DNA from: a virus | Reading direction: 5' to 3' (one strand) | Virus record (IMG/VR): IMGVR_UViG_3300017681_000004 | Coordinates: 1 to 39,406 of that record | DNA length: 39,406 bases | Part shown: one piece after another, positions 124 to 39,406 of the stretch | How the letters are laid out: the number at the start of each line of letters is the position of its first letter | Numbering within the stretch: the stretch's first letter is position 1 | Position numbers and translations under genes: made by a program | Notes under the pieces: generated by a model | The model's database searches: none | What the model saw: only the letters and a program-made list of their open reading frames with translations | What the model was told of the DNA's origin: nothing

Positions 124-153
124 CCGCCGGCTTCATCCACCGGCGGGCTTTTT
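121..153 (+). terminator. Rho-independent terminator between convergent genes (candidate bidirectional)
   Basis: AGCCCGCCGG (121-130) / CCGGCGGGCT (140-149), 10-bp GC stem, 9-nt loop, then TTTT (150-153). In the circular map it follows the rightward operon stop (69-71, equivalent to 39352-39354). It abuts the stop of the leftward HNH gene. Confidence 0.8.
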
Positions 154-451
154 AATTTCCGAGTTGGCCTGCGAACCGCGCTGTTAGGATGGAGTCCCAA
201 GCCTCCGGCGTTTTGTCAGCCTTGAGCCTGTTGCAAGATCGACATGCGATCACGACGTTCGACTGCACATTTTTGCCGCCCTTAGAGATAGGCTGCACGT
301 GGTCAAAAGTTGCGGTGTTTTTTGCGAGCTTCCAAGGCATGCCGCTCACGGGCAAAACCATTTTCTTTGCGCAGTAGTGGCAGCACCACCCCTGCGTCTC
401 AATTTTGCGGGCCATGATGGCTCGGCGCTGTTTGGCTGTCCGGTTCCTCAT
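152..451 (-). CDS. HNH endonuclease (99 aa)
   Basis: C-terminal part of ORF 152..898. CCHYC...FDHVQPISKGG...ACRSCNRLK is an HNH/zinc-finger signature. ATG at 449-451 overlaps the upstream stop as ATGA. Confidence 0.8.
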   Translation of the reverse strand: MRNRTAKQRRAIMARKIETQGWCCHYCAKKMVLPVSGMPWKLAKNTATFDHVQPISKGGKNVQSNVVIACRSCNRLKADKTPEAWDSILTARFAGQLGN

Positions 452-798
452 GGCAGCAGCTTCATCGCCTCGTCGGCCGAATAGACGACGCCCGTGATGC
501 ACCCCTTGGCCCGAGCCGCGTCGAGGAACGCCTTTTGCTCCGGCGTCACGCGGACACCCGGCGTCTTGACCTCTATCGCCACGAACTGACCCGTCGACGT
601 GTACCCTATGATGTCCGACGAGCCGACGCAGAGACCGGCCACCAGGGGTCTCGGCTCGCGCAGCGTGACCCGATCCGCGCCGACGCCGCCGACGACCTTC
701 CCGACCCATCCCTTGCCCGTATTCTGGCGGAACAGCCGGTGCCCGCGCTCGCTCGCCCCGAGCAGAATCGCGTTGATGATGTCTTTTTCGGCTTTCAT
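448..798 (-). CDS. VRR-NUC domain nuclease (PD-(D/E)xK fold)
   Basis: 116 aa. RLFRQNTG...GSSDIIGY...FVAIEVKTP...TPEQKAFLD matches the VRR-NUC pattern. Coupled to flanking genes. Confidence 0.75.
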   Translation of the reverse strand: MKAEKDIINAILLGASERGHRLFRQNTGKGWVGKVVGGVGADRVTLREPRPLVAGLCVGSSDIIGYTSTGQFVAIEVKTPGVRVTPEQKAFLDAARAKGCITGVVYSADEAMKLLP

Positions 799-1025
799 GC
801 CTCAGCCCTCCGTTTCTCCCACGCGACCGCAAGCGCAGCCTGAGTTTGCGCCCGTGCCAGCGCGCGCCTGCGGGCCTTGTATCGGGCGTTCCAGGCAAGA
901 CAGCGAGCGTATGCGACGTGGCGCCCGAGCCGTGTCTGCGCCATCAGGACGTGATGATATGACCGGCCCATGACTTCCGCGATCCGCATCGGCGCCACGC
1001 CGTCGTGCAGCATATAATCGACCAT
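795..1025 (-). CDS. Small helix-turn-helix-like protein (76 aa)
   Basis: ORF 795..1112 would overlap the helicase by 79 nt. The internal ATG at 1023-1025 lies 8 nt after the helicase stop with GAGG upstream. VAPMRIAEVMGRSYHHVLMAQTRLG looks HTH-like. Confidence 0.5.
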   Translation of the reverse strand: MVDYMLHDGVAPMRIAEVMGRSYHHVLMAQTRLGRHVAYARCLAWNARYKARRRALARAQTQAALAVAWEKRRAEA

Positions 1026-2473: not shown

Positions 2474-2790
2474 TTCACCAACACGGCCCGCACCGCCTCC
2501 ACGTTTACGCCCGCCCGTGCGGCGCCGTCGGCGATATCACCCCATCGCTCGTGCGGCACCGCCCCATCGGGCCAGCGATACAACGTGTTCGGATCGATGC
2601 CCACGGCCCGACAGAACGGCCGCACGCCCCCGAACAGCCCGACAAGTTCGGCGTGTCTCTCCGGCGGTCGCGGCGCGGTCTCGGGCCGATCTCGCCGCGG
2701 CGTCTTGCGCCACCAAGCCAGATAGTGCCGCTGACACATGCCCCGACAGACCGCCTCCTCCTCGCAACTCATAACCATGCATCTCGTCAT
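2470..2790 (-). CDS. Cro/YdaS-like HTH regulator with Cys-rich N-terminus (106 aa)
   Basis: ATG 2788-2790 preceded by GGAGG (2796-2800). N-terminus C..C..C.GMC..HY. C-terminal FCRAVGIDPNTLYRW is HTH-like. First gene after the leftward promoter. Confidence 0.55.
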   Translation of the reverse strand: MTRCMVMSCEEEAVCRGMCQRHYLAWWRKTPRRDRPETAPRPPERHAELVGLFGGVRPFCRAVGIDPNTLYRWPDGAVPHERWGDIADGAARAGVNVEAVRAVLVK

Positions 2791-2806
2791 CGCGACCTCC
2801 TGAGCC

Positions 2807-2847
2807 CGTATAAAATGCCGTTGACACCGCGTCAACGGCTCTATAGA
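2807..2847. promoter_or_regulatory. Face-to-face divergent sigma70-like promoters embedded in a perfect palindrome
   Basis: GCCGTTGAC (2817-2825) N5 GTCAACGGC (2831-2839). Plus strand: TTGACA 2821-2826 with TATAGA 2842-2847. Minus strand: TTGACG (2830-2835), 17-nt spacer, TATACG (2807-2812). Confidence 0.7.
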
Positions 2848-2878
2848 CCGGGAATGGGAACTGAAACGGGAGATGCAG

Positions 2879-3076
2879 ATGACAGTCGATCAGATTTTGC
2901 GCGATATTGACGAGCACGGGTTACAGTTTGGCTGTAACAGACTCGCCGAGGAGCGCCCTGAATATCTCTGGTATGTCCGAATTGGATCAGACTACAGCAA
3001 GGCCCGACGCGGAGCGACGTTTGAGGCCGCCGTGCTCGCCGCTTGGGCTGCGTACACGAACGCGGAGGGCAAGTGA
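2879..3076 (+). CDS. Hypothetical protein (65 aa)
   Basis: ORF 2873..3076. The second ATG (2879) follows the conserved leader AAACGGGAGATGCAG-ATG shared with the other early cassettes. Confidence 0.55.
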   Translation: MTVDQILRDIDEHGLQFGCNRLAEERPEYLWYVRIGSDYSKARRGATFEAAVLAAWAAYTNAEGK

Positions 3077-3279
3077 TGTGGATCGCGTCTCTGCCGCTGT
3101 GGTTTGTTTCGTTCGTTATGCTGCTTGTCGCGATTTTTTCTGCGTATCAAGCATACCGCTTGGCGCTATCTTCTGGCTCGTCATCTGAGGAAATCGGCAC
3201 GAAGGCATGGCTTTCGATGGCATTTCTTGTGCTGTGCTCGCTACTGGCCGCGCTGGCCTCTCTCGTCGGGAGGCTCTGA
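3076..3279 (+). CDS. Small membrane protein, two predicted TM helices (67 aa)
   Basis: MWIASLPLWFVSFVMLLVAIF and AWLSMAFLVLCSLLAALASLV. ATG overlaps the upstream stop (TGATG). Confidence 0.6.
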   Translation: MWIASLPLWFVSFVMLLVAIFSAYQAYRLALSSGSSSEEIGTKAWLSMAFLVLCSLLAALASLVGRL

Positions 3280-3965
3280 TGCCGATCCAGATCCACACCG
3301 ACCTAGTCCAGGGCTCAGACGAATGGCTCGCCGCGCGCTGCGGTCTGCTAACGGCGTCGGAAATGAGCCTGATCCTAACTCCTACCCTGAAGGTCGCGCA
3401 GAACGACAAACAGCGCGCCCATCTGTATGAGCTTCTGGCGCAGCGAATCACGAACTACGTCGAGCCCCGCTATCTGAGCGACGATATGTTGCGCGGCCAT
3501 ATTGACGAGGCTGAGGCTCTAGCGTTGTATGAGCAGCACTACGCGCCCGTTGAGACGGCCGGGTTTATCACGAATGACGAGTGGGGTTTCACGCTCGGGT
3601 ATTCGCCTGACGGTCTCGTTGGCACTGACGGGCTGGTCGAGGTAAAGAGCCGCCGGCAGAAGTACCAAGTCGAGACGTTCTGCGTACACGTCACCGAACA
3701 AACGATCCCGGCCGACTACGTTTTGCAGATCCAGACAGGGCTTCTCGTCACGGGCCGCAAGTGGTGCGATCTGGTGTCTTACTCTGCCGGCCTGCCTATG
3801 GCTCGGATCAGGGCATATCCTGACGAGGCCATGCAGGACGCGATCGTGAAGGCCGCGACATCGTTCGAGACGGCGCTATCAGTGGCCCGTGAGAAATACG
3901 ACGCCGCAATCGTCGGCGCCCCCACGACCGAGCGCCGCGCCGCAGAACAGGAAATGGTGTTATGA
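3279..3965 (+). CDS. YqaJ / lambda-exonuclease-like recombination exonuclease (228 aa)
   Basis: QGSDEWLAARCGLLTASEMS at the N-terminus is typical of YqaJ-type viral recombinases. Also DGLVEVKSR and ADYVLQIQTGL. Start overlaps the upstream stop (TGATG). Confidence 0.8.
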   Translation: MPIQIHTDLVQGSDEWLAARCGLLTASEMSLILTPTLKVAQNDKQRAHLYELLAQRITNYVEPRYLSDDMLRGHIDEAEALALYEQHYAPVETAGFITNDEWGFTLGYSPDGLVGTDGLVEVKSRRQKYQVETFCVHVTEQTIPADYVLQIQTGLLVTGRKWCDLVSYSAGLPMARIRAYPDEAMQDAIVKAATSFETALSVAREKYDAAIVGAPTTERRAAEQEMVL

Positions 3966-4432
3966 GCGAGCGAGGTAAGTGGCCTAGAAAATCTCTAGAG
4001 GAAAGATTCCACCAGCGATATATTCCAGAGCCAAACTCAGGATGCTGGCTATGGATTGGTAAATTAAACGCCTATGGGTATGGCCGAGTTATAAGGTCTG
4101 GAACAAAAGAAGAGATGGCGCATCGCGTTTCTCTTGAGCTATCTGGCCTCCATTTAGCGAAAAACGAATTAGCCTGCCACCGCTGCGATACGCCATCGTG
4201 CGTCAACCCAGATCACATTTTTGTAGGATCACACGCAGACAATAGTAGAGATATGGCATCTAAAAAAAGAGGTACAATCGGAGAGTCAAATAGACATTCA
4301 AAGCTGACTTCCTCCCAAGTTGCAGACATAATAAAAGACAGCAGAAGCGCAAAGGATATTGCAGTAGCTTATGGCATTTGCGAATCTACTGTCAGAAATT
4401 ATAAATCTGGCAGAACGTGGGGACACCTGTAA
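3962..4432 (+). CDS. HNH homing-type endonuclease (HNH_3-like) with C-terminal HTH
   Basis: CWLWIGKLNAYGYGRV...AHRVS...CHRCDTPSCVNPDHIFVGSHADN. Hand count of 4021-4080 gives 43% G+C against 62-68% in flanking genes. Confidence 0.85.
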   Translation: MSERGKWPRKSLEERFHQRYIPEPNSGCWLWIGKLNAYGYGRVIRSGTKEEMAHRVSLELSGLHLAKNELACHRCDTPSCVNPDHIFVGSHADNSRDMASKKRGTIGESNRHSKLTSSQVADIIKDSRSAKDIAVAYGICESTVRNYKSGRTWGHL

Positions 4433-5646: not shown

Positions 5647-6161
5647 TGCTTAATGGCGCCTAGGGCCTTCACGACGTTGTCGCTGATGAGTTCTAGGCGC
5701 CCACTAATCAGATCAAGGCGCGTAACCACCCGATCCATGTCCTTGGAAGTTCGCTCCTCTAGGGATGCGAGTTCCTTTTTGGTGGCGTACATGCCGGCCA
5801 CTTGTGAGCGATGCTCGCTGCTGCGATCTTCCATCATTTTGAGGCTCGCATTCACGGCCACCTGGAACGCGTCGCGCTCGTTGCGGCTGGCCTCTTTGGA
5901 AGCGTCCCGCACGGCTACAAGTTCCTTGAACTCTTTTCGGAGATCCTTGACGGCGTCCTGCACGTTCTCGAAATCGCGGTTCTTGCCGCCGATTCGCCAG
6001 AGCCAGCCGCCGAACCCGATCATCATTCCGATGAGCGCCAGCACGGTGACGGGCGAGACTTGCGGCTGCCAACTCAGCACGTCGCCGACCCCTGCGTCTT
6101 GAACGCGGGCTTGAGCTTCGATGAAAACGGGCTTCCATACCTGCGCATCCGGGAATCCCAT
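5643..6161 (-). CDS. Single-pass membrane protein with long coiled coil (i-spanin-like or holin-like), 172 aa
   Basis: ATG 6159-6161 overlaps the endolysin stop (TGATG). One TM (VTVLALIGMMIGFGGWLW) followed by a charged helical region. Last gene of the late operon. Confidence 0.5.
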   Translation of the reverse strand: MGFPDAQVWKPVFIEAQARVQDAGVGDVLSWQPQVSPVTVLALIGMMIGFGGWLWRIGGKNRDFENVQDAVKDLRKEFKELVAVRDASKEASRNERDAFQVAVNASLKMMEDRSSEHRSQVAGMYATKKELASLEERTSKDMDRVVTRLDLISGRLELISDNVVKALGAIKH

Positions 6162-20869: not shown

Positions 20870-21105
20870 TCCACCGTCAGCACGATCGCGTCGAGGCCAG
20901 CAAACACGATGCCGGCCTCGTCCGCAAGGTACAGGGGGCCGGCAGGGGGCGTGTTGAGGTCGATCACGGTCCCGTCAGACCACGCAAACGGCCGCCCCGC
21001 CTCGTCGCAGAGATACAGCGGGTCGTGCGACTTGTTCGGGAACAGGCCGCGCACGGGCGCGGTCCTGAACTCGTAGTCGTAGGTGGCGCGGCGATCATTC
21101 CGCAC
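20866..21105 (-). CDS. Small hypothetical protein with internal duplication (79 aa)
   Basis: PLYLCDEAGRPFAW and PLYLADEAGIVFAG are repeated motifs. Overlaps the upstream tailspike stop by 11 nt. Confidence 0.45.
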   Translation of the reverse strand: MRNDRRATYDYEFRTAPVRGLFPNKSHDPLYLCDEAGRPFAWSDGTVIDLNTPPAGPLYLADEAGIVFAGLDAIVLTVE

Positions 21106-23137
21106 TGAGCTTTTCGACCTTTTCGGCTAAATTTTCCAAGTACATAACCATGCCTGCCATCGCAAAAGAAAGAGCCTCCTCGTAGCGTATGCTGTACCTC
21201 TCGCCATCTGGCAGTTCGTCTAAGCAAATGAACCCATATGACAGCGGATCAAGACCGCGCTTTCTGCCAGAATCCACGACGCGCTGCGCAATCAATCCGA
21301 TATGTCGGCGGGCTTCCTTGCCTTTTTCGGCAACCGAATCTTTGAACTTGTATGAAACGAACAGCTTAGAAATATCCATACCCCACGCATTTTCAGCATC
21401 GGTCATGTCCGATATCTCAGACTTCAGATTCTCATCTGAGGACACGACGGGGGCGCTTCCGAGGTAAATCGTAGTCGCCCTGTTGCCGGCGGCGCCGAAG
21501 GATCTCTGGTTGTCGTCATAGGGGTGGAATGCCCCGGACGTCATCCACCAGATGTCACCAACGTCAGTCCTGCCGAAAGACTGGATTCCGCCGTATGCCC
21601 GCTGCGTCCACTTTGGATTGTCAAGATTTGTGTCGCTAATACGAAGCGATGCAACTTCAGTAAATGTGGTGTTAGTTTTTATTGCAGAGATACCTCCGAC
21701 GCTAAAGTCAAAGGTAGCACTTGTTTTATTGTATCCGTGGCTTGCTGTTCCGAGCACGGACCCATACAAATCGGACGACAGCTTAGTAGTGCTGACGACG
21801 TTGTCGTAAAAAACGCGGCCATTGTTTGGGAGCGCAATCGCACAGTTGCCGTTAGATGAAAAATCACCTCTGACCAAGTCGACACCGACCCGAGCCGTAC
21901 CGCCAAAAGCCCACACGGCGTCAATCGGCCTAGTGCCAAATGATGTATAGTATTCGGCTATCCAAACAGCATCTCTTGCGCCGGTGTTGTTGTTGCGATT
22001 GAACCCTTGAAGATAACCAATAGCCGCGATGTCGTGGCCAAGATCGTTAAAGCTGACTTCTCTGTTCGTAAGGAAAACACCATCAGATTGAGCAATGATA
22101 TCTCCACCATCGATACCAGCGGTAGAGGTTTCATAAAACGTGCGCTGACCAGGGGTCGGCTGGTAGCTTGCGGAAACACGGTAGAGTCGCGCGTAGCAAT
22201 CGCCGCCAGCGCTATGGAAAACGCTATCCTGCGCAAACGGGTTCATCGTACGAACGCCAAGCGTTACAGCATCGCCGGCAGCGTAAGCCATCGTCAGAGG
22301 CGGGGAAAACGTGACGACGTTACCGCTTATATTCTCAATCGTTACGCGATCCGTGTAATTCTCAGCGCTGCCGGTGTTTGAAAAAACCCCAAGTTTGTTT
22401 GTGGCGGCAAGCCCAACAACCGAGTTAAGCGTAAATGATGTTGCACCAATTCCAGCAGGAGCAGTCAGACGAGCCGCAAAACCACTATTCCCGCCCCTGT
22501 TTTCAAAGAACGAAAAATGTGGAGTGGTCGTGTCTTCTACATACCTTTCGTCCAGCCCGCTTCTAAGGCCGGTATTTACAATGAAATATTCTGGACGGAC
22601 TTTGCTCTGATCGCCGACGAAATAGGCATTGCCATCGCTTGGCCGCACCGGCTTTGTCGTGATCCAGCTATAGACCCCCGGAAAATCATTGACGTTTTGC
22701 CCGCGAACCTTGATCTGCCCCGGACCATCAAATCCAACGTCCCACGTCAGGTCGAGGCGCGTTGTCAGGTATTCGCCAGCGTCGAGATAAATTCTTTTAG
22801 CACCAGCGTTTTTCGCCGCCTGAAGCGCGGCAGCGTTGTCCGTAACGCCATCGCCTACGCCCCCAAAGACAGTTCTGAAATTGCTGGGGACGGCAGACTT
22901 CAGGGCCGCAGATGTCGGCGCACTGACCGGCTTTTGGGCGTCTGGCGTATTGTCCACGTTACCGAGCCCGACCGATTGCTTGGTCGCGGCTGGCACCAGT
23001 TGCGCTGCCCGGTCAGCCAACTTCTGCGAAGTGATGGCGACAGAAGCTCCTCCCTGAGCCGCTGGGATCGTCTCAGACCCGTCAAGCTGACCGGCAAGAG
23101 GAAGACCGCCGATTGTGCGAACGCGCGCTGTGGTCAT
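21095..23137 (-). CDS. Tailspike 1 with C-terminal intramolecular chaperone (peptidase S74 / endosialidase-chaperone domain)
   Basis: N-terminal GLGNVDNTPDAQKPVS fibre motif. The C-terminal VVSSDENLKSEISD...RHIGLIAQRV...YSIRYEEALSFAMAGM matches the self-cleaving chaperone domain (nt ~21098-21442). The body is low G+C: 40% in 21661-21720. Confidence 0.8.
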   Translation of the reverse strand: MTTARVRTIGGLPLAGQLDGSETIPAAQGGASVAITSQKLADRAAQLVPAATKQSVGLGNVDNTPDAQKPVSAPTSAALKSAVPSNFRTVFGGVGDGVTDNAAALQAAKNAGAKRIYLDAGEYLTTRLDLTWDVGFDGPGQIKVRGQNVNDFPGVYSWITTKPVRPSDGNAYFVGDQSKVRPEYFIVNTGLRSGLDERYVEDTTTPHFSFFENRGGNSGFAARLTAPAGIGATSFTLNSVVGLAATNKLGVFSNTGSAENYTDRVTIENISGNVVTFSPPLTMAYAAGDAVTLGVRTMNPFAQDSVFHSAGGDCYARLYRVSASYQPTPGQRTFYETSTAGIDGGDIIAQSDGVFLTNREVSFNDLGHDIAAIGYLQGFNRNNNTGARDAVWIAEYYTSFGTRPIDAVWAFGGTARVGVDLVRGDFSSNGNCAIALPNNGRVFYDNVVSTTKLSSDLYGSVLGTASHGYNKTSATFDFSVGGISAIKTNTTFTEVASLRISDTNLDNPKWTQRAYGGIQSFGRTDVGDIWWMTSGAFHPYDDNQRSFGAAGNRATTIYLGSAPVVSSDENLKSEISDMTDAENAWGMDISKLFVSYKFKDSVAEKGKEARRHIGLIAQRVVDSGRKRGLDPLSYGFICLDELPDGERYSIRYEEALSFAMAGMVMYLENLAEKVEKLSAE

Positions 23138-23661: not shown

Positions 23662-23936
23662 ATGAGCACGCTGACGACGGCGGTTGCCGTGGTTCCGCTT
23701 GAGGTAAACCCGACGACGGCCACGTTGTCGAGGATCGTCGGCCCGACCGCGGCCGGCACGACGAGGAACGAATTATCTTGGAACCGCAGCCGCACGTTCC
23801 CGGCTGCGGACGTGGCGATGAACACGCCGCGGCCCGGCACCGCAAGGGCCTGATCTGCGGCGACCTGGCGCGCGCCCGTGTACGGCAGCGTTCCCGATGT
23901 CGTCCAGAGCGTGTTCCCGGCGCTGTCAATCGGCAT
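23658..23936 (-). CDS. Hypothetical virion protein (92 aa)
   Basis: Beta-rich ORF coupled to neighbours. Confidence 0.5.
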   Translation of the reverse strand: MPIDSAGNTLWTTSGTLPYTGARQVAADQALAVPGRGVFIATSAAGNVRLRFQDNSFLVVPAAVGPTILDNVAVVGFTSSGTTATAVVSVLM

Positions 23937-24120
23937 CGCTGGCGGACTCCACGAGCGCCTTAAGCCGAGCCCAAGCGAGCGCTACCCGCTGCTGCTTGTC
24001 CGGTTCGCTGTCATCCATAGCGCAAGAGGCTTCGAAGACCAAGGCCGCGCCGAGGAGAGTTGCGCGCGGTTGGGGATCGAGGCGTTCGGCGAGCGTGCGG
24101 GCGGTGTGGAGGAGGGTCAT
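23926..24120 (-). CDS. Small hypothetical protein (64 aa)
   Basis: First ORF after the structured non-coding segment. ATG 24118-24120 lies 7 nt after a long hairpin (24128-24170). Confidence 0.45.
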   Translation of the reverse strand: MTLLHTARTLAERLDPQPRATLLGAALVFEASCAMDDSEPDKQQRVALAWARLKALVESASDAD

Positions 24121-24352
24121 ACGTTTAGGGTCGCCGCATTGGCCCGGTAGCGACCCGGATGCGACGACCCTTCAAGGCCGGGCCGGATTGGATACCGGCA
24201 TCTGCAAGATTTATCAGGAATCTGGCGTCACCATTTCTGGATCGGCTTCTCACGGCACCGTGCCTACCTGACCGTGAACCCTTGGGACGAATGGGCACCC
24301 ACCCGCTTGCGTTTTCCCATCAGCGCGTCTCTCCGCGCCGCCGGACGCCGGG

Positions 24353-24381
24353 TTTATTTCACTAGTTATGGGTCCTGTCAA
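24353..24381 (-). promoter_or_regulatory. Promoter-like element P-U3 (TTGACA-17-AATAAA) directly after terminator T2
   Basis: TTGACA at 24376-24381. GGAGAGAC leader and an 18-codon micro-ORF (24264-24320) lie 56 nt downstream, the same spacing as in the early cassettes. The -10 is weak. Confidence 0.4.
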
Positions 24382-24416
24382 CAGAAAGCCCGCCGACGCA
24401 GCGAACGTGGCGGGCT
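24382..24416 (-). terminator. Intrinsic terminator T2
   Basis: AGCCCGCC(ACG)...(CGT)CGGCGGGCT stem followed by TTTCTGTT on the minus strand. Confidence 0.65.
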
Positions 24417-24531
24417 CCCATAGCTACTCTCCGACCCTTTGGGTATCTCCGCATGCGCGGGGACCGGCACGCTGTCCTCTTGTCCGGTAGGCGCAGACCC
24501 TATTTTCAGGAGACCTGTGATCTGCCGCGCC
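24382..24531 (-). ncRNA. Candidate small transcript U2 (promoter P-U2 to terminator T2, ~140 nt)
   Basis: Bracketed by TTGACA-17-GATACC and T2. Contains the stems GCGGCAGA/TCTGCGC and CAGG-TCT-CCTG, and a 7-bp hairpin UCCCCGC-GCAU-GCGGAGA. Also holds a 19-codon micro-ORF with a GGAGAG SD. Its RNA or peptide nature is unresolved. Confidence 0.3.
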
Positions 24532-24560
24532 GGTATCTCACCGCTCGCCACCGCTGTCAA
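24532..24560 (-). promoter_or_regulatory. Promoter-like element P-U2 (TTGACA-17-GATACC) directly after terminator T1
   Basis: TTGACA 24555-24560, 17-nt spacer, GATACC 24532-24537. Confidence 0.5.
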
Positions 24561-24561
24561 C

Positions 24562-24602
24562 GAAAAGGCCCCGCCCGTGTGTCGCCACGGTCGGGGCCCC
24601 TT
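24562..24602 (-). terminator. Intrinsic terminator T1
   Basis: GGCCCCG-A-CCGTG-GCGACA-CACGG-G-CGGGGCC, a 12-bp interrupted GC stem, followed by TTTTCGTT. Confidence 0.75.
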
Positions 24603-24742
24603 CTATGGCAGGAGTGACGTCCGGTGGAACGGTCGGCACTTAATTGTCTGGCAACCCGCGCTCGCCTAACATGAGCACGCTCCGGTTTGCGATTGACGGA
24701 CCGAATATTCCGCCAGTGCGGTCTCACGGGTAACCCTGCCTG
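24562..24742 (-). ncRNA. Candidate small transcript U1 (promoter P-U1 to terminator T1, ~170 nt)
   Basis: Bracketed by TTGACG-17-GATAAG and T1. Contains only 10- and 33-codon reading frames. Several local stems, e.g. CCGC-ACUG-GCGG. Confidence 0.3.
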
Positions 24743-24771
24743 CTTATCTCACCCCCACGGGTTATCGTCAA
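24743..24771 (-). promoter_or_regulatory. Promoter-like element P-U1 (TTGACG-17-GATAAG), overlapping repeat R3
   Basis: TTGACG 24766-24771, 17-nt spacer, GATAAG 24743-24748 immediately after a TGA stop. Confidence 0.5.
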
Positions 24772-24772
24772 C
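24749..24772 (-). repeat. Repeat R3: GTT GAC GAT AAC CCG TGG GGG TGA
   Basis: Third copy of the portal 3' end (V)DDNPWG-stop. Confidence 0.85.
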
Positions 24773-24847
24773 CGGGTCGGACGCCATCTCGACTGCCCCA
24801 GGGAGCAAGGGATTCGAACCCCCGCTAGCTTTCGCCCCGCGCGCCAT
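24749..24847 (-). CDS. Candidate micro-ORF (32 aa) ending in DDNPWG
   Basis: MARGAKASGGSNPLLPGAVEMASDPVDDNPWG. The ATG is preceded by ACGGGGAGTCCGCAA, which closely resembles the early-cassette leader ACGGGAGACCAGCAA-ATG. Its C-terminus duplicates the portal C-terminus. Confidence 0.35.
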   Translation of the reverse strand: MARGAKASGGSNPLLPGAVEMASDPVDDNPWG

Positions 24848-24942
24848 TTGCGGACTCCCCGTAACAACCCCTTCGCCCGCTGATCAGGCGGAACCACGGG
24901 CGGCCTGCGGCTTTCAGGCTTCCGGTATGCACCCAACCTACA

Positions 24943-24966
24943 CTATCCCCACGGGTTGTCGTCAAC
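24943..24966 (-). repeat. Repeat R2: GTT GAC GAC AAC CCG TGG GGA TAG
   Basis: Second copy. Lies in the +1 frame relative to the Zn-ribbon gene, whose stop (24962-24964) is inside it. Also provides a TTGACG box (24960-24965). Confidence 0.85.
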
Positions 24967-25192
24967 CTCCTCCGGCCAACTCGCGGACGTCGTCTGGGTG
25001 CCCCGCCTTAGAAGAAACACTCCACGAATTCCCGCAGCTATGGCAAGTGCGGGTTCTTGTCGTCGTGTTTGGGTCAAGCCCTCCGATCTGGTTGCCACGC
25101 TTGTCATACGTCGGCGTCCATCCCATCAGGGTCATCATGCTGCCGCTGTAGCTGAATCGGCAGTCCTCACGCGCGCATTCGTCCATCGTCAT
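24962..25192 (-). CDS. Small zinc-ribbon protein (76 aa)
   Basis: CAREDC...CHSCG four-Cys pattern. ATG 25190-25192 overlaps the portal stop (ATGA). The ORF track lists 24962..25198. Confidence 0.6.
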   Translation of the reverse strand: MTMDECAREDCRFSYSGSMMTLMGWTPTYDKRGNQIGGLDPNTTTRTRTCHSCGNSWSVSSKAGHPDDVRELAGGG

Positions 25193-25209
25193 CCCCATGG
25201 GTTGTCATC
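25189..25209 (-). repeat. Repeat R1: portal 3' end GAT GAC AAC CCA TGG GGA TGA
   Basis: Prototype copy. These are the last six codons plus the stop of the portal gene. Confidence 0.85.
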
Positions 25210-27249
25210 CTCTGGCTCCGGCTGCGCCCACAGCCCGCCATCCATCCCTTCCGGGTCGCTCGGGACCGGCCCCTGCATGGCCTGCTCTGTCGGCCCCTCA
25301 GGCGCGATCTGGGGCACGGCGGACACATGCGCGTCGACCATCGTCTTGACCGTCTGCGCCTGCTCCTTGCCCGCCTGAACGCCGATCTTGCCCGTCTCGG
25401 CCTGCACCTTGCCGACCGTGGCGCCGGCCTGTGCCGCCTGAGCCTGCTTCAGCGTGGTCTCGGCCTGCGTTTTGCCGACGTCGGCCTGTGCCTGCGCTAG
25501 TTCGATCTGCGCCGCCTGCTGGACCGCCGGGTTCGGCTGCTGCGCCTTTTCGATCTCGCCCATGGCCTCCTTTTTCACAGAAGCCGGCAGGGCAGACAGT
25601 TTCAGAATCAGCCCAGGCGGGATCTGCTGCCCGTTCTGAGCCAGAGCGAGCAGCGTATCGAAGGCGTCGGCCATCGCGTTGACGTTGTCCGGCCCCTCAT
25701 CGATCAGGATATCGACATCGAGCGAGCCGAGCGCGTTCACGAGCACCTGTTGCCCGAGTTCGCCCTGTTCGGTGCCATTGACTTGAAGGAACTCGGTCAG
25801 TCCTTCGCTGTCGGTGACGCGAATCCAGCGCTCTGCGGTCCAGAATTGCTGAACAGCCGACCAAATCGCACGATATACCCGGATTTTCCATCCGCGGTAG
25901 CGAAGTAGAAACGGACCAAGCTCGGCGATCCCTGCCTGCTGTAGCAACTGTATTGCCCGGCCAGACTGGTTCTTGCCACCTTCGCCGACGAGCGATGGAT
26001 TGGGCCCGAAATTGTCGATTTCGTTCTTGGCGTCCTCAAGAAACGCCATATTCCCCTGAAAATCCGCAGTGCCCTGCTCGACCTCATATTTCCCATCCGT
26101 GTTTAGCTCAATGAACCCGTCAACGCGCGCCTCCTCACGACGGGCAACCTCGACGTCATCGACCACGCCCCGCTGCGCACGGATCTTCCGGCTGTTCAAG
26201 CTGTGCAGGGCCTTGGAACGGCGGCGATTGATCTCGTCCTGCGGGCTCTTGAGGTCGCGCACGAACCCATAGCGGTCATCGTCCTGGTCGATCATGTTCG
26301 AGTACATGATGAGCCGGCAGGAGGACGCGCCCTTGTTGTCCTTGAACGGCGACGGGCCGCGTTCGAGCACGATGTCGCCCGTGTAGAAGCAATAGAACCA
26401 GTCGCGGCCCTTGCGATACCAGTGCTCTACGACGCGGACGGTTCGCTCGCGGGTGTTGGTCCATTTGGTCTGACGGTTGGTGTCGGTGGGGTTGTCTTCG
26501 GAGCCTCCCGTTGCAGAGACGCTGTCGCGTACAGACTGTGCGTGATCAGGCCACAACTCGGCGACCAAACCTCCATCCATCCATTTGTGGATACCCATGA
26601 ATGTGGCGTCAGAAAAGTCTGCGCGGGCAGATCGCGGGTCATAGAAAAACTCCCTCGGGTCGATGCGCTGAATCGAGATATCCGGGTCGCCCTGGTCGCC
26701 GGCCTCGACCACGATCTCAAGTCCGCCAATCGCCGACGTGGCTCCATCCTCGGCGCAGTCGGGGCTGATGGATTTCCAGTCGTTCTGATCCAGCACGTAG
26801 TTCAGGACCGCTGTGGCAAGCTCGGCGCCGTCCTCGTGCTTCGGCGTGCGGGCGAACGACTTCGGGTCCTGCCGCAGGCGCTCGAGCAGGCCGACGACGG
26901 CGTTGATCTTCCGCGAGACCCGGTTGAACGTGACCACCGGCTGACCGCGGCCTCGCAGCTTGCGGATCTCTTTCTCGGTCCACTGCGAGCCGTGGCGGTA
27001 TCGGCGCGACTCCTGCGCCTCGTCCATCTCGGCGGACTTCGACCCGAGATAATCGCTGTACTGGCGCCGCAGCCGTTCCAAGCCATCCGCGTCGAGGCCG
27101 TCGAGATCCTTGACGGCGCCCATCTGACGGCCGATCGACCCGCTGGTCTCGACCGTGTAGCGCTCGCCACGGGGCATCCGCGTTTTCATCTCGCGAACGT
27201 CGCCGGGTGCCACCAGCTTTTCGCCGGGGCCGATTAGTCCTGCCGTCAT
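25189..27249 (-). CDS. Portal protein
   Basis: 686 aa, downstream of TerL. Has a RYRHGSQWTEKEIRKLRGRGQPVVTFNRV-type portal N-terminal motif (RYY.G.QW...GRP...N). C-terminal Gln/Ala-rich helix and an acidic tail. Confidence 0.85.
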   Translation of the reverse strand: MTAGLIGPGEKLVAPGDVREMKTRMPRGERYTVETSGSIGRQMGAVKDLDGLDADGLERLRRQYSDYLGSKSAEMDEAQESRRYRHGSQWTEKEIRKLRGRGQPVVTFNRVSRKINAVVGLLERLRQDPKSFARTPKHEDGAELATAVLNYVLDQNDWKSISPDCAEDGATSAIGGLEIVVEAGDQGDPDISIQRIDPREFFYDPRSARADFSDATFMGIHKWMDGGLVAELWPDHAQSVRDSVSATGGSEDNPTDTNRQTKWTNTRERTVRVVEHWYRKGRDWFYCFYTGDIVLERGPSPFKDNKGASSCRLIMYSNMIDQDDDRYGFVRDLKSPQDEINRRRSKALHSLNSRKIRAQRGVVDDVEVARREEARVDGFIELNTDGKYEVEQGTADFQGNMAFLEDAKNEIDNFGPNPSLVGEGGKNQSGRAIQLLQQAGIAELGPFLLRYRGWKIRVYRAIWSAVQQFWTAERWIRVTDSEGLTEFLQVNGTEQGELGQQVLVNALGSLDVDILIDEGPDNVNAMADAFDTLLALAQNGQQIPPGLILKLSALPASVKKEAMGEIEKAQQPNPAVQQAAQIELAQAQADVGKTQAETTLKQAQAAQAGATVGKVQAETGKIGVQAGKEQAQTVKTMVDAHVSAVPQIAPEGPTEQAMQGPVPSDPEGMDGGLWAQPEPEDDNPWG

Positions 27250-27503: not shown

Positions 27504-28997
27504 TCAATCCCCCATCAAATCGTCGCCATACGCGCGCGACGCCCCAACCTCTGCATACCCGGTTTCGTCGCCCTTGTCTGGCTTTCTCGGCGGCGCGGCG
27601 GCGAGCGCCTTGTCGAGTAGCTGCCCGATCAGTCCAAGTGCGTCGACTTGGTCGTCATGGACGCCCGCCGGGAAGCGAAGCATTTCGGCTTCGAGCGCGG
27701 ACCTCCATACAGCCGAGGCTGGAACACGTAGCCCGCGACTCGCAATCATGCCGCGAAAAGATTGTGCACGTGTAGCCTTGTCGCCCCGCGTCGGGAACTG
27801 CTCGCGCACCGTGTACGCCTTCCGCTCCTGCATCGCGCGCGTCAGGTACGGGCCCACGCTCGCCTTGATCTGTCCGGTTTCCTCGGCCCATCCTAACGGT
27901 CTCCACTTTTTCACGAGGTCGCAAAACGCATCCACCCACACGTCCGAACTGGCCTGGCCGCGCCAGAGATCCACCAGCCACGGATTGTCCTCGGCATCTA
28001 GCCCGATGACCGCGTGCACCGTGTAATCGCCGCCGTTGGCCGTCACGGCGTAATCCGAGCCGCCGTAGAACCGATATGCCCCACCAGCCGAACGGGCGTC
28101 CTTGGGGCTGGAATCGACGGGGATCAGCCATTCGGCGCGGAAGAAATCGCCCGTGTCCGGCGTCGGCTCCTGCTGGAACAGCGCGGACCACGAGCGCGTG
28201 TCGAGTTCGGCGTGGCGCTTGCGCAGAAATTGTCCGTAGAGGTACGCCGGGTCGTTGTCCCACAGGTATTGCCCAGGCATCCGGCCGAGCGGGTCGCCGA
28301 GCCCTGCGATGGCCGGCATGGTCAAGACGTCCCATCCCTCAGGGTTCGCCTCGGAGACCAGCCCGTCGCGCTCGATCAGCCGGCCCGAGAGGTCGTCCTC
28401 GTGCCATCTGGTATTCGTTATAATTTGGCGGGCGCCGGGTCGCAGTCGGTTTTCGAAGTCGTCGAGGTACCATTCCCAGATACGGTCACGGACAAGTTTG
28501 CTGTCGGCGTCTTGTCGGGAGCGTATTGGATCGTCAACGAGGCCAAGATCGGCTCGGAATCCCGCGATGCCAACGCCCACGCCCGCCGCAAGATACTCTC
28601 GATCTCCCGTCGTGCTCCAGCGCTCAACCGCAGTTTCTCTGAGGCCGTATCCAAGCGTGTGTCCATGACTTGTCGCCAATCCCCTGACTTTTCGAGAAAA
28701 CCGCTGCGCCAACTGCGAATTGTGCGACCCGGCGATGACGTGCCCGCCTTTTTCGTGGGCCAAAAACCACGTCGGAAATAGCACGCTGCTGTACGAACTT
28801 TTGGCTGAGCCGGGCGGCGCGAATATCATCAACTTCCGGATCGACCCGTCAGCGACCGCCTGAAGGTGCTCGCACATGACGCGGTGATGCAACTGCGGCT
28901 GCTGGTCTGCGGGCTGAACGCGCCGGCAGAAGGCTAGGTAATCGCGCCGGAGGTGGCGGCGCTCTAGGAGGAGCGCCGCGGCTTGTTGGGGGGTCAT
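27504..28997 (-). CDS. terL: Terminase large subunit
   Basis: 497 aa. Walker A-like FAPPGSAKSS, LVDDP (Walker B region), nuclease-region TRWHEDDLSGRL. Confidence 0.9.
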   Translation of the reverse strand: MTPQQAAALLLERRHLRRDYLAFCRRVQPADQQPQLHHRVMCEHLQAVADGSIRKLMIFAPPGSAKSSYSSVLFPTWFLAHEKGGHVIAGSHNSQLAQRFSRKVRGLATSHGHTLGYGLRETAVERWSTTGDREYLAAGVGVGIAGFRADLGLVDDPIRSRQDADSKLVRDRIWEWYLDDFENRLRPGARQIITNTRWHEDDLSGRLIERDGLVSEANPEGWDVLTMPAIAGLGDPLGRMPGQYLWDNDPAYLYGQFLRKRHAELDTRSWSALFQQEPTPDTGDFFRAEWLIPVDSSPKDARSAGGAYRFYGGSDYAVTANGGDYTVHAVIGLDAEDNPWLVDLWRGQASSDVWVDAFCDLVKKWRPLGWAEETGQIKASVGPYLTRAMQERKAYTVREQFPTRGDKATRAQSFRGMIASRGLRVPASAVWRSALEAEMLRFPAGVHDDQVDALGLIGQLLDKALAAAPPRKPDKGDETGYAEVGASRAYGDDLMGD

Positions 28998-30181: not shown

Positions 30182-30210
30182 TTTGTGCCATGCCTTGAGA
30201 TCCGTGTCAA
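30182..30210 (-). promoter_or_regulatory. Early-type promoter (TTGACAC box)
   Basis: GAAATAGCCGTTGACAC. TTGACA 30205-30210, 17-nt spacer, CACAAA 30182-30187. Confidence 0.6.
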
Positions 30211-32645: not shown

Positions 32646-32866
32646 TGACCGGCCTCGTCGGATCGAACGCCGTCCTGAACCGCCTGCGCGACACGCCGGG
32701 CCTGTTCATCGTCAAGACGCACACCCGTAAGGGCCCCGTGTACCACTACGACCGCACGCTGACCCCGATCCCGCGCGAGGTCTGCGAACGATTGATCGAA
32801 AAGGGCCGCCTCGTGCCGCGTGAGGCGTCGGGGCAGGGTTGGGAACTGGCAGAGGAGTGGAGATGA
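32642..32866 (+). CDS. Hypothetical protein (74 aa)
   Basis: Coupled ORF (ATGA overlaps at both ends). Confidence 0.5.
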   Translation: MMTGLVGSNAVLNRLRDTPGLFIVKTHTRKGPVYHYDRTLTPIPREVCERLIEKGRLVPREASGQGWELAEEWR

Positions 32867-35267: not shown

Positions 35268-35632
35268 CCGCCCCCTCACCTCACACCCACCCCGCAGAGC
35301 GAGAGACCCCGGCCGGCGAGGCGATGCGCGAGGCGGTGGCGCAGTGGCTGGAGTCCGAAGTCGGCCTCTATGTCTCAGATGCCGCCGAGAAAGCCGGTGA
35401 GTTCTGCGGGCCATCCGGCCCCATCGCCCCGGAACTCGCCCGCCTCACGGCTCGCATCGAAGTCGCGGAGGCCAAAGCCGAGAACGCGGACCTCATCGCC
35501 AAAAACGAATGGCTTCGGTCTGAAGGCTTGCTCGCCCGCGCTCGCGCCGCCGAAGCCGCCCTCATCACGCTTCGCGCCGACCACGCCGCAGAGGTGGCGA
35601 GGCTGCGCGACGAACTGAAAGCCGCCCAATGA
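35264..35632 (+). CDS. Hypothetical coiled-coil protein (122 aa)
   Basis: MTAPSPHTHPAERE... is the C-terminal part of listed ORF 34934..35632. ATGA overlap. C-terminal heptad-like region. Confidence 0.5.
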   Translation: MTAPSPHTHPAERETPAGEAMREAVAQWLESEVGLYVSDAAEKAGEFCGPSGPIAPELARLTARIEVAEAKAENADLIAKNEWLRSEGLLARARAAEAALITLRADHAAEVARLRDELKAAQ

Positions 35633-36030
35633 ACGCGCCCCACAAGCAGACCCGCGTCGAGGCAGAGCTAGGACGCGCCATGATGCGAATCGGCGAACTC
35701 GAGGAGGAAATCGCGCGGCTGCAACGTCTCCTCTTGCCGGCAAGAGGAACGCCGCCAGCCTGGCGCCTCACTGCCAAAGAGGAGCGCTTGATGCTCGCGA
35801 TGGAACTCGTATACCCGAGGACTCTGACGGCTGAAAAGGCCCTCGAAATGGTCTGGCCTGACACGTTCCCGGACAAGCGCGTGCTGCACGTGATGGGCGT
35901 AAATATCCGGAAGAAAATCGAGCCACACGGCTGCGGGATCATAACCGTGTGGGGCCGCGGTTACCGAATAGATGAGCGCACGGCGCAGGCGATTCGCGAT
36001 TATGATATAGCCGTTGACACGACTGAGTAG
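35629..36030 (+). CDS. OmpR/PhoB-type winged-helix DNA-binding regulator without receiver domain (133 aa)
   Basis: LTAKEERLMLAMELVYPRTLTAEKALEMVWPD...RVLHVMGVNIRKKIEPHGCGIITVWGRGYRI matches the Trans_reg_C pattern (LT..E..L......L...VW....R.L.V.I..LRKK.....I.TV.G.GY). N-terminal coiled coil. Confidence 0.75.
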   Translation: MNAPHKQTRVEAELGRAMMRIGELEEEIARLQRLLLPARGTPPAWRLTAKEERLMLAMELVYPRTLTAEKALEMVWPDTFPDKRVLHVMGVNIRKKIEPHGCGIITVWGRGYRIDERTAQAIRDYDIAVDTTE

Positions 36031-36195: not shown

Positions 36196-36374
36196 AACAC
36201 ATGCCAGCGCCCGGAACCCTGTACCGCCGCAAGGGTGGCGGTTTCATCACCCTGCACGTCAGCCTGAACGATGAGATCCACGCACGGATTTTGGCCGACC
36301 GATTCGACGTCGGGTATGTGTCTGGCCCGATGAGCGTGGCGGATTTCTGGTCGCTGGTAGACGCCGGGCTCTAA
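36192..36374 (+). CDS. Small hypothetical protein (60 aa, GTG start)
   Basis: GTGA overlap with the upstream stop. An ATG at codon 4 is an alternative start. Confidence 0.45.
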   Translation: MKHMPAPGTLYRRKGGGFITLHVSLNDEIHARILADRFDVGYVSGPMSVADFWSLVDAGL

Positions 36375-36425
36375 CACCCGCTAAACCCCACGGTTGGGAG
36401 CCGTGGGAAACCGACCTGGGGGAGC

Positions 36426-39118: not shown

Positions 39119-39354
39119 CCGCGCGCGTCTCGCTAGTCGACCAGATCGCCACCGTCGAGCGCGTCGCCCACGAGATCGCGATGCTTATGAAAGAGCGAGA
39201 TTTCTACGTGAGCTACCCGCAGATGGTCGGCTTTGAGTTGGAAAACCTACAGGCCGCAGTGCGGACGCTGGAATTCATGCGGGCGCACGAACAGACCATC
39301 CGAGACGCTATATCTAGCGCAAGAGCACTTGACGCGGCACAAGTAGAGCCGTAA
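39115..39354 (+). CDS. Hypothetical protein (79 aa); 3' end lies in the terminal repeat
   Basis: MTARVSLVDQIATVERVAHEI... ATGA overlap with the upstream stop. The last 71 nt are duplicated at 1-71. Confidence 0.55.
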   Translation: MTARVSLVDQIATVERVAHEIAMLMKERDFYVSYPQMVGFELENLQAAVRTLEFMRAHEQTIRDAISSARALDAAQVEP

Positions 39355-39406
39355 ATCAGAGGCCACTGGTCTCCCCCAGTCTCCTCGGTCCTCCCAGACC
39401 ACTAGC
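39284..39406. repeat. Terminal direct repeat, right copy (identical to 1-123)
   Basis: Exact 123/123 identity with the left end. Confidence 0.97.

Follow-up and report, generated by a model that had tools for sequence, protein, structure and literature searches.

The phage genome represented by IMG/VR record IMGVR_UViG_3300017681_000004 carries, between its portal gene and a conserved gene of 64 amino acids (aa) termed g64, a hypervariable slot that is probably a tandem array of moron-like small-RNA (sRNA) cassettes. In this reading, to which we assign a probability of roughly 0.55, accessory cassettes bounded by promoters and terminators were built up by recombination. The analysis covered the whole record of 39,406 nucleotides (nt), referred to here as the window, and centred on 841 nt at positions 24121-24961, about 2% of the genome. 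Two segments of this region, U1 and U2, look like sRNA genes, both being predicted to run from promoter to terminator without credible coding capacity. Comparison with related phages showed directly that the cassette borders are reused sequences. On the left stands a copy of the portal 3' tail, the TTGACG form of which constitutes a predicted sigma-70-type promoter, and on the right a GC hairpin followed by CTTTTCGT. The same comparison showed directly that the putative promoter of U2 has been conserved and the body transcribed from it swapped.

The 841 nt are non-coding. Across 24120-24960 the difference in G+C content (GC) between codon phases was at most 0.17, compared with 0.22-0.48 in the flanking genes. 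The ten longest open reading frames (ORFs) on either strand had no Pfam match at E <= 0.1, and against PHROGs they gave just two chance-level matches (E = 0.013 and 0.025) of unknown function. None of the ORFs had a homolog in related phages, for which about 16 distinct loci (designated below by L numbers) with portal identities of 77-96% were found via portal and g64 in IMG/VR, JGI metagenomes and Logan assemblies; a portal scan of GTDB genomes yielded no close relative. When all ORFs of the relatives were compared with the region by tblastn, the matches merely reflected nucleotide homology, in every frame. On these grounds, a hidden or frameshifted protein gene, which the original prediction had raised as a competing explanation, was rejected, and its description of the region as ORF-poor held. 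Searched by BlastN, the region had no match among 50,697 phage records, and a transfer RNA (tRNA)-like stretch of 43 nt was the only match to plasmids. In the Rfam search, no family was detected in the whole window at gathering thresholds, in line with the earlier failure to recognize an RNA family by eye, and at E <= 10 the region returned only chance microRNA-type hairpins and sub-threshold tRNA-like matches.

Every promoter box, hairpin, Shine-Dalgarno (SD) sequence and small frame listed in the original prediction was found on the minus strand where it had been placed. The motif TTGACR-N17-NANA gave 12 matches in the whole window, compared with 0.88 +/- 0.84 in shuffled sequences, none of 100 of which reached 12. 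The matches correspond to 11 distinct genome sites, all but one of them intergenic and ahead of genes, and three of the 11 (P_U1, P_U2 and P_U3) fall within 24121-24961. P_U1 (TTGACG-17-GATAAG, 24743-24771, minus strand) has its -35 element TTGACG at 24766-24771 and an extended -10 element, GTGA-GATAAG, at 24743-24752. P_U2 (TTGACA-17-GATACC, 24532-24560, minus strand) abuts the U-tract of the first terminator, T1, and P_U3 (24353-24381, minus strand; TTGACA at 24376-24381, then 17 nt and AATAAA) abuts that of the second, T2. The boxes at 24771, 24560 and 24381 share GTGA immediately before the -10 element, which resembles an extended -10. A generic scan for E. coli-type consensus promoters found nothing in the region because its -10 elements are non-canonical. 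As is characteristic of morons, the units thus appear to possess promoters of their own.

The promoter class, in the form TTGACR-N13/14-GTGrGATAAr, also heads non-homologous units in L012, L014, L018, L020, L022 and L058-L060. The P_U1 promoter lies inside the portal tails of L012, L059, L060, L018 and L004, where an RNA unit follows. For most relatives, a tail of the -35 type (TTGACG, or ATGACA combined with a -10 element of the TAT/TAC type) goes together with such a unit immediately behind it; ATGACA portal tails were also found ahead of ORFs.

T1 (24563-24598, minus strand; stem 24567-24598, U-tract 24563-24566) is a hairpin followed by UUUUCG and is the most stable 44-nt window of the whole minus strand (-33.5 kcal/mol, against a mean of -11.6 +/- 4.4). 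T2 (24385-24415, minus strand; stem 24388-24415), found by the terminator scan and followed by UUUCUG, ranks 17th on that strand in local stability over 44-nt windows. A final hairpin of 43 nt (24128-24170, minus strand), which ends 7 nt before the g64 ATG at 24120 and lacks a U-tract, ranks 5th. U1 and U2 would therefore each have a factor-independent terminator of their own, which is a further moron feature, and U3 has none. The 3' arm of the final hairpin aligned with the 3' arm of the L014 terminator, with TAAACGT in place of TTTTCGT, indicating that the hairpin sits where relatives have a terminator and that its U-tract was lost. Fold z-scores were -2.5 for the whole 841 nt, -2.5 for U1, -1.3 for U2 and -1.1 for U3, and the segment 24785-24934 folded no better than shuffled sequence (+1.4). 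Of the claim that the region is heavily structured, the three hairpins survived, all of them among the 17 most stable local hairpins of the minus strand, whereas the overall excess was modest.

It was also observed that 24539-24626 form an imperfect palindrome with 41-nt arms (73% complementary) centred on the T1 loop, so that the P_U2 region approximates an inverted complement of the U1 3' core. L058 shows the same arrangement, which may represent an inverted duplication or a bidirectional terminator.

U1 (24562-24736, minus strand) is a predicted RNA of about 174 nt extending from P_U1 to T1. Its 5' half contains a hairpin at 24655-24684 with the loop AUGUUAGGC, followed by a small hairpin at 24614-24639, the single-stranded CUCCUGCCA at 24606-24614 and then T1. 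Three blocks of the 5' half, GCAAACCGG, the AUGUUAGGC loop and CARACAAUU, recur in the unit of L018, and between the two phages the loop is kept while its stem differs entirely. Over 24606-24639, identity is 100% to L058 and L059, 91% to L012 and 85% to L060. The 3' core together with T1 is 92-94% identical in L058 and L059, and L012 and L060 have terminators of their own. The small hairpin shows one compensatory change from G-C to A-U, and CUCCUGCCA is invariant and predicted to be unpaired in five phages. Compared with L058, the stretch comprising the U1 core, T1 and P_U2 is 92% identical, as high a value as for the coding g64 (92%) and a higher one than for the portal end with the Zn-ribbon gene (77%). 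U1 is a chimera, the 3' core and terminator of which recur in four other phages. DNA-pattern scans of IMG/VR with the U1 5' blocks, the 3' core and T1 returned nothing or a single match judged to be chance, which lay in the tRNA cluster of an unrelated 52-kb phage. An 11-bp bulged match between CUCCUGCCA and the SD sequence of a small ORF at 32864 was not significant (rough p ~0.07) and was discarded.

U2 (24382-24525, minus strand) is a predicted RNA of about 142 nt extending from P_U2 to T2. L058, a further carrier of the Zn-ribbon gene, conserves the T1/P_U2 junction and P_U2 itself. The body that follows the homologous P_U2 in L058 is nevertheless unrelated; it is about 140 nt long and has its own terminator. 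The recurrence of P_U1, the U1 3' core, T1 and P_U2 in relatives supports the earlier proposal that U1 and U2 are self-contained promoter-to-terminator units. The conservation expected among related phages was found for those four elements, and not for the U2 body or U3. A pairing of the U2 sequence GGUCUCCUG with the early-gene SD leader CGGGAGACC was dropped because it is expected by chance.

U3 (24121-24346, minus strand) is the 226-nt leader of g64 and has no terminator before that gene. Its SD sequence GGAGAG (24328-24333, minus strand) is shown in a hairpin loop, and an upstream open reading frame (uORF) of 18 codons, MGKRKRVGAHSSQGFTVR, spans 24264-24320 on the same strand. U3 is probably a restart promoter followed by a uORF and the g64 leader rather than a terminator-bounded unit. 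In L059, L014, L012 and L002, the g64 ATG comes right after TTTTCGT. The TTTTCGT of the window leads into TGACAG..., with the g64 ATG 440 nt further on, behind ...TAAACGT; because of this displacement, U2 and U3 look like an insertion between T1 and g64.

DNA homology to six relatives ends exactly at the portal stop codon and resumes at g64 in L002 and L005. At the lower end of its size range, the slot between these borders measures about 130 nt (L012) or holds a single ORF (L005); the window marks the upper end with 1.08 kb. As in morons, the slot DNA appears to be extra, being missing at the same position in close relatives. In L005 and L013, the slot holds one ORF of 77 aa, overlapping g64, with neither promoter nor terminator. 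L002 has a 70-aa ORF, a structured stretch and a terminator, and L019 has an ORF homologous to that of L002 and a terminator. A single unit of about 110-150 nt, with its promoter within the last portal codons, is present in L012, L059 and L060. L014 has an 80-aa ORF, then a non-coding portal-tail copy and a unit of about 190 nt, and L058 has a homolog of the Zn-ribbon ORF and a unit. In L001, L003, L004 and L006, the slot is taken by a unit of another kind, about 100 nt long (type A), and in L003 and L004 a second promoter-to-terminator unit follows it. Nearly all units end in a GC hairpin plus CTTTTCGT, which abuts the g64 ATG in many phages, and the non-homologous units of relatives have the same promoter/terminator architecture as U1 and U2.

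In L022, three tandem cassettes occupy 2778-3536, and at their junctions a truncated, L002-like g64 5' end is fused to a portal 3' tail. Judged from the sequences, these junctions are clear tandem-duplication or recombination scars and suggest how the arrays grow. Within the type A unit, five base pairs show compensatory double changes among only four sequences and the loop AAGUGAWGGA is conserved, whereas the reading frames, as read from the sequences, are not. Together with the compensatory change, the kept loop and the high core identity of U1, this points to selection on RNA in the slot. In the second unit of L003 (2262-2279) and L004 (8251-8268), a 5-codon ORF (MQSAG and MKSAG, respectively) with a strong GGGAGG SD sequence and two synonymous differences was seen just upstream of the terminator; a conserved mini-ORF or a leader peptide is conceivable.

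The first cassette of the slot is protein-coding, namely the 78-aa Zn-ribbon ORF (24962-25198, minus strand). A homolog at the same place in L058 (4464-4709) was not called in the source record, and nucleotide identity between the two loci is 77% over 25260-24947. The C-terminal heptapeptide of the L058 protein is the same as that of the portal. The L058 copy was observed to read in frame through the portal-tail copy and to end in ...VGPVDDNPWG*, whereas the copy in the window does not. No relatives of the Zn-ribbon protein were found in IMG/VR, and only the protein itself was found in a set of 5.8 billion proteins.

The repeat GAYGAYAACCCRTGGGG occurs three times, compared with 0.04 expected. 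R1 (25191-25222, minus strand) is the genuine portal 3' tail (...EDDNPWG*) and the template of the repeats. R2 (24945-24976, minus strand) duplicates the portal 3' tail of a relative in non-coding form. Its identity to the L012 portal tail is 97% over 30 of the 32 nt (24976-24947), and the additional non-coding tail copy of L014 matches the full 32 nt, likewise at 97%. The TTGACG noted earlier within R2 is present at 24960-24965, but the sequence at the -10 position, TGTAGG, is poor and fails the phage promoter motif. R2 is a recombination scar in the form of a portal-tail copy, and is a weak promoter at best. R3 (24742-24782, minus strand), the non-coding portal-tail copy that contains P_U1, matches the L012 portal tail at 32 of 32 positions (24742-24773), including its -10 element.

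Between R2 and R3, the segment 24783-24944 has no homolog in any fetched relative or elsewhere in the window. Part of it (24800-24885, minus strand) resembles tRNA-Ser(UGA) and was first picked up through a BlastN match to Bradyrhizobium plasmids, from which the pattern GAAMGCTANCGGGGGTTCGAATCCCT was derived. Positions 24808-24833 fit this 26-nt pattern at 26 of 26 positions (two degenerate). The pattern is present in 32 bacterial genomes of many phyla. ARAGORN, run on 18 of the 32 loci, placed it within tRNA-Ser(UGA) in 15 and within tRNA-Ser(CGA) in one, where it corresponds to the variable arm and the T arm. A covariance model built from 16 real tRNA-Ser genes aligned over its full length to 24800-24885 (25.8 bits; E ~6e-5, with rough calibration). 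The D-arm is recognizable; unlike in real tRNA-Ser genes, however, the acceptor and anticodon stems are mismatched, CCA is absent and the score is low. Additionally, ARAGORN at default settings called no tRNA, and the tRNA-like models of Rfam scored only 13-14 bits, below threshold. A weak "tRNA-Pro" call by ARAGORN at relaxed settings (70% thresholds) stood among evident false positives and was not used as evidence. The element is therefore a tRNA-Ser gene in decay or, at most, something tRNA-like, and not a working tRNA. Its use as an attachment site (attP) was rejected, no integrase having been found among the ORFs scanned. The 32-codon micro-ORF of the original prediction (24749-24847) is probably spurious because it starts inside this relic.

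The tandem mosaic cassettes probably accumulated through recombination among related phages. From transcription onward, we infer the following steps. The host sigma-70 RNA polymerase would start at P_U1 (~24736) and stop at T1 (~24563), yielding an RNA of about 174 nt, and would start at P_U2 (~24525) and stop at T2 (~24384), yielding an RNA of about 142 nt. These sRNAs may be trans-acting accessory regulators, the likeliest mode being the pairing of C/U-rich, anti-SD-like single strands with host messenger RNAs (mRNAs). T1 and T2 might also stop or attenuate read-through from the portal/Zn-ribbon mRNA, in the 3' untranslated region of which the tRNA relic would lie. P_U3 would then restart transcription into g64 and the downstream virion genes, through a leader with an early-type SD sequence and a uORF. 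Because some relatives have none of the array, it is probably dispensable for virion production and accessory.

A moron is an autonomous unit equipped with a promoter and a terminator of its own (PMC3594210). In lambdoid prophages, the moron site is occupied by genes for sRNAs that share a conserved 3' region and vary at the 5' end (PMC4104026). The units described here resemble HK97/lambdoid morons (Juhala/Hendrix definition; PMC3594210) in being putative autonomous transcription units with a promoter and a factor-independent terminator, and in lying between two conserved late-operon genes, being absent from close relatives and being horizontally exchanged. Classical morons, in contrast, carry a protein gene, stand out from the neighboring DNA in GC and owe their definition to expression from repressed prophages. 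In the slot, the cargo is non-coding, and no integrase or repressor was found among the ORFs scanned; neither a GC deviation nor a protein gene expressed from a prophage was found. Moreover, the units are stacked in tandem and their borders are reused gene-end and terminator sequences. Compared with AgvB, AsxR and the related EcOnc anti-sRNAs of enterohemorrhagic Escherichia coli (EHEC; PMC4104026), the slot units are likewise non-coding sRNA genes, as predicted, at a conserved, insertion-tolerant site of the late region, and the U1 family similarly combines a conserved 3' part with variable 5' ends. There is no sequence relationship between the two groups. The EHEC RNAs are 51-60 nt long, convergent and bound by Hfq, whereas the slot units are 140-175 nt long (predicted), co-directional with the operon and each provided with its own putative sigma-70-type promoter. 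The slot also differs from integron arrays: no integrase was found, and the borders are copies of the portal tail or g64 5' end rather than attC sites, and therefore bear the signature of homologous or illegitimate recombination.

Among other explanations, the strongest is that the region is pure transcriptional punctuation, with promoters and leaky terminators retuning low-copy packaging (terminase, portal) relative to high-copy virion transcripts and the bodies being functionless spacers. We regard this as a possibility to be taken seriously, if clearly the less probable one. At least ten relatives have a hairpin and U-tract flush against the g64 start codon (CTTTTCGTATG), P_U3 reads into g64 with no terminator in between, the window and L058 share the conserved P_U2 but have unrelated bodies behind it, and no trans target was found within the phage genome. 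However, the group does not need such punctuation, as L005 and L013 pass from a small ORF straight into g64 with no promoter or terminator; for the same reason, insulation of the packaging genes from the virion genes, as proposed earlier, is not an essential role. Compensatory stem changes (type A and U1 hairpins) and conserved loops lie outside the terminators, and two full promoter-to-terminator units in series give downstream transcription nothing. Alternatively, the slot could be harmless recombination debris, consisting of scars and decayed cassettes at a permissive site with no current function. Parts of the region are, to judge from the relic and the dead promoter copy, exactly that: the stems of the tRNA-Ser relic are broken, the portal-tail copy R2 has a dead -10 element, L022 has truncated g64 5' ends fused to portal 3' tails, half of the region is without a homolog, and 24785-24934 shows no folding beyond that of shuffled sequence. 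As an account of the whole array it seems rather unlikely, since three intact motif promoters and two of the strongest terminator-like hairpins of the genome have been kept in register, and the U1 core is conserved like the neighboring coding gene although the portal ends have diverged to ~77%. In addition, small phage genomes have limited capsid capacity and seldom retain 2% junk.

That the functional products are very small proteins, such as that of the 18-codon ORF of U3 behind GGAGAG, is improbable. The SD sequence of U3, in a hairpin loop and at a workable spacing, is of the same type as that of the early genes (GGGAGAGACC-N-ATG), and the 5-codon M(K/Q)SAG ORF in the second unit of L003/L004 has a strong SD sequence and two synonymous differences. 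Yet the region shows no codon periodicity, no ORF homolog in relatives and no family match; the type A frames are not conserved, and the 32-codon ORF overlaps the tRNA relic. Among the ORFs of the region, only the uORF of U3 appears to have a credible SD sequence. We consider it very improbable that the units are cis-acting antitermination modules in the style of lambda PR'-qut-6S-tR' or HK022 put, in which an element loads a factor or modifies the polymerase, late transcription reads through T1, T2 and later terminators, and the short RNAs are by-products. In lambda, the constitutive-looking promoter PR' is followed within ~150-200 nt by the strong intrinsic terminator tR', with 6S RNA between them, upstream of the late genes, and this single, Q-dependent unit stands at the head of the late operon. 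The succession of promoter, short structured transcript and terminator upstream of late genes is similar here, and in many relatives the genes after the terminator have no promoter of their own. However, the window has up to three units, inside the operon, and they are absent or non-homologous in close relatives, which is unexpected for an essential late-gene switch. No gene of the Q family was found, the units do not occupy a place that is both conserved and required at the start of the late genes, and three serial promoters with different downstream elements do not fit one system. No Q- or N-like protein was detected in Pfam scans of about 20 non-structural ORFs (structural ORFs were compared with PHROGs only, where they matched no antiterminator family, and very divergent proteins could escape).

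Several observations weigh against the array of sRNA cassettes that we favor. The best duplex of CUCCUGCCA within the phage genome (-24.7 kcal/mol) falls inside the null range of -21 to -27, and no homolog of the U2 body, T2, P_U3 or U3 was found in the relatives, the window or the public collections searched. The folding energy in excess of the terminators is weak, and the U-tracts are short (4 U in T1, 3 U in T2), which may make termination inefficient. With only a few, closely related phages to compare, the support from covariation (the G-C to A-U change in U1 and the five type A pairs) is thin. No Rfam family matched the units in the window-wide search. Unlike in classical morons, GC equals that of the genome (0.628 compared with 0.633). 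Finally, part of the array is demonstrably decayed, namely the tRNA relic and R2 with its dead -10 element, and other parts could be debris too for that reason. The earlier suggestion of one large ornate RNA fares worse than separate cassettes, given the mosaic of exchangeable modules of 50-200 nt, the lack of an Rfam match and the weak folding excess.

Going beyond the array of sRNA cassettes itself, we tentatively suggest an integrase-free "sRNA cassette array" in which the borders (portal tail/promoter on one side, hairpin-CTTTTCGT on the other) act as portable handles for swapping, stacking and shuffling modules among co-circulating phages; equally tentatively, this would include the exchange of 5' and 3' halves inside a module. 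If so, each phage would obtain a fast-diversifying repertoire of regulatory or anti-defense RNAs against its host. Accessory cargo of phage late operons is usually treated as protein-coding morons, and non-coding cargo has been documented mainly in enterobacterial prophages. If expressed, the units would be a case of stacked, modular sRNA genes in an uncultivated podovirus-like phage. They would offer a testable sRNA core (hairpin, CUCCUGCCA and terminator), a defined phage promoter class and a picture of locus growth by tail/terminator handles, tandem-duplication scars and decay to relics. The locus is also a warning for annotation, as ~2% of the genome would be left blank or given spurious small ORFs such as the 32-codon frame on the relic.

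The window ends, 1-123 and 39284-39406, form an exact 123-nt overlap, indicating a circular assembly with a genome of 39,283 bp, and the matching ENA contig has 39,424 nt (39,283 plus a 141-nt overlap). Over the region, 1401 nt are 100% identical in two records (one from ENA, one from Logan), which rules out an assembly artefact at the repeats. The long minus-strand operon runs from small early-type genes (30.2-29.0 kb) through the large terminase (27504-28997, minus strand) and a P22-type portal (25189-27249, minus strand; phrog_156) to the Zn-ribbon ORF and the 841-nt region. It continues with g64 (23926-24120, minus strand), which forms the right-hand border of the slot, g92 and g175, and then the tail fibres and major capsid protein. 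Other genes among the scanned ORFs encode a helicase, an exonuclease, a primase, two HNH endonucleases and an endolysin, and no phage RNA polymerase, integrase, repressor or Q/N-type antiterminator was found among them. Distant portal homologs (~50-55% identity) occur in genomes of Mesorhizobium, Agrobacterium, Aquamicrobium and other Rhizobiales, and the host of this uncultivated, podovirus-like phage, found solely in metagenomes (ENA ERZ27250752, SRR6988716), is therefore probably an alphaproteobacterium. A role of the region as replication origin was rejected, as it contains no global GC-skew extremum; the minimum lies at 31-32 kb.

Outside the slot, a second promoter class, distinct from the GTGA-GATAAr class of the slot, has the near-identical upstream context AAATAnCCGTTGACACG-N15-yAyAmA and was seen at 30210, 29690 and 29197 (minus strand), 36014 (plus strand), 2821 (plus strand)/2835 (minus strand) and 46 (plus strand). 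On the minus strand, the leader GGGAGAGACCAG-ATG follows, before small early-type ORFs. The sole transcription regulator detected is a 133-aa ORF (35629-36030, plus strand) with an OmpR/PhoB-type winged-helix domain (Trans_reg_C, E = 4.6e-10), a candidate activator of the phage TTGACA promoters with weak -10 elements. The two HNH-type endonuclease genes (152-898, minus strand; 3962-4432, plus strand) in this 39-kb genome could feed the recombination mosaicism of the phage group. In the 680-aa tail-fibre gene, the distal two-thirds (21000-22800), including the C-terminal region matched by tail fibre/tail spike families, have a GC of 0.51-0.54 compared with 0.63 for the genome, which suggests a horizontally acquired receptor-binding module.

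Further tRNA-like sequences were noted. In L004, the terminase and portal genes flank a tRNA-like element of class II (5771-5856; 26.1 bits with the tRNA-Ser model) that has a good acceptor stem and D-arm and a degenerate T-arm; ARAGORN makes no call there. Just upstream of the primase gene of the window, 36341-36415 (plus strand) scored 16.7 bits with the same model, with CUCUAAC at the anticodon-loop position; Rfam found nothing there, and the match is probably chance. A tRNA-Ser-like 3' fragment (L024; Bradyrhizobium quebecense plasmid NZ_CP088023.1, 49188-49229) comprises the variable arm, the T arm and the acceptor 3' strand, ends in GCGA instead of GCCA, and has genes for an IS630 transposase and an SOS repressor as neighbors. 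This fragment has the look of an att-site remnant and resembles the relic of the window more than canonical tRNA-Ser genes do.

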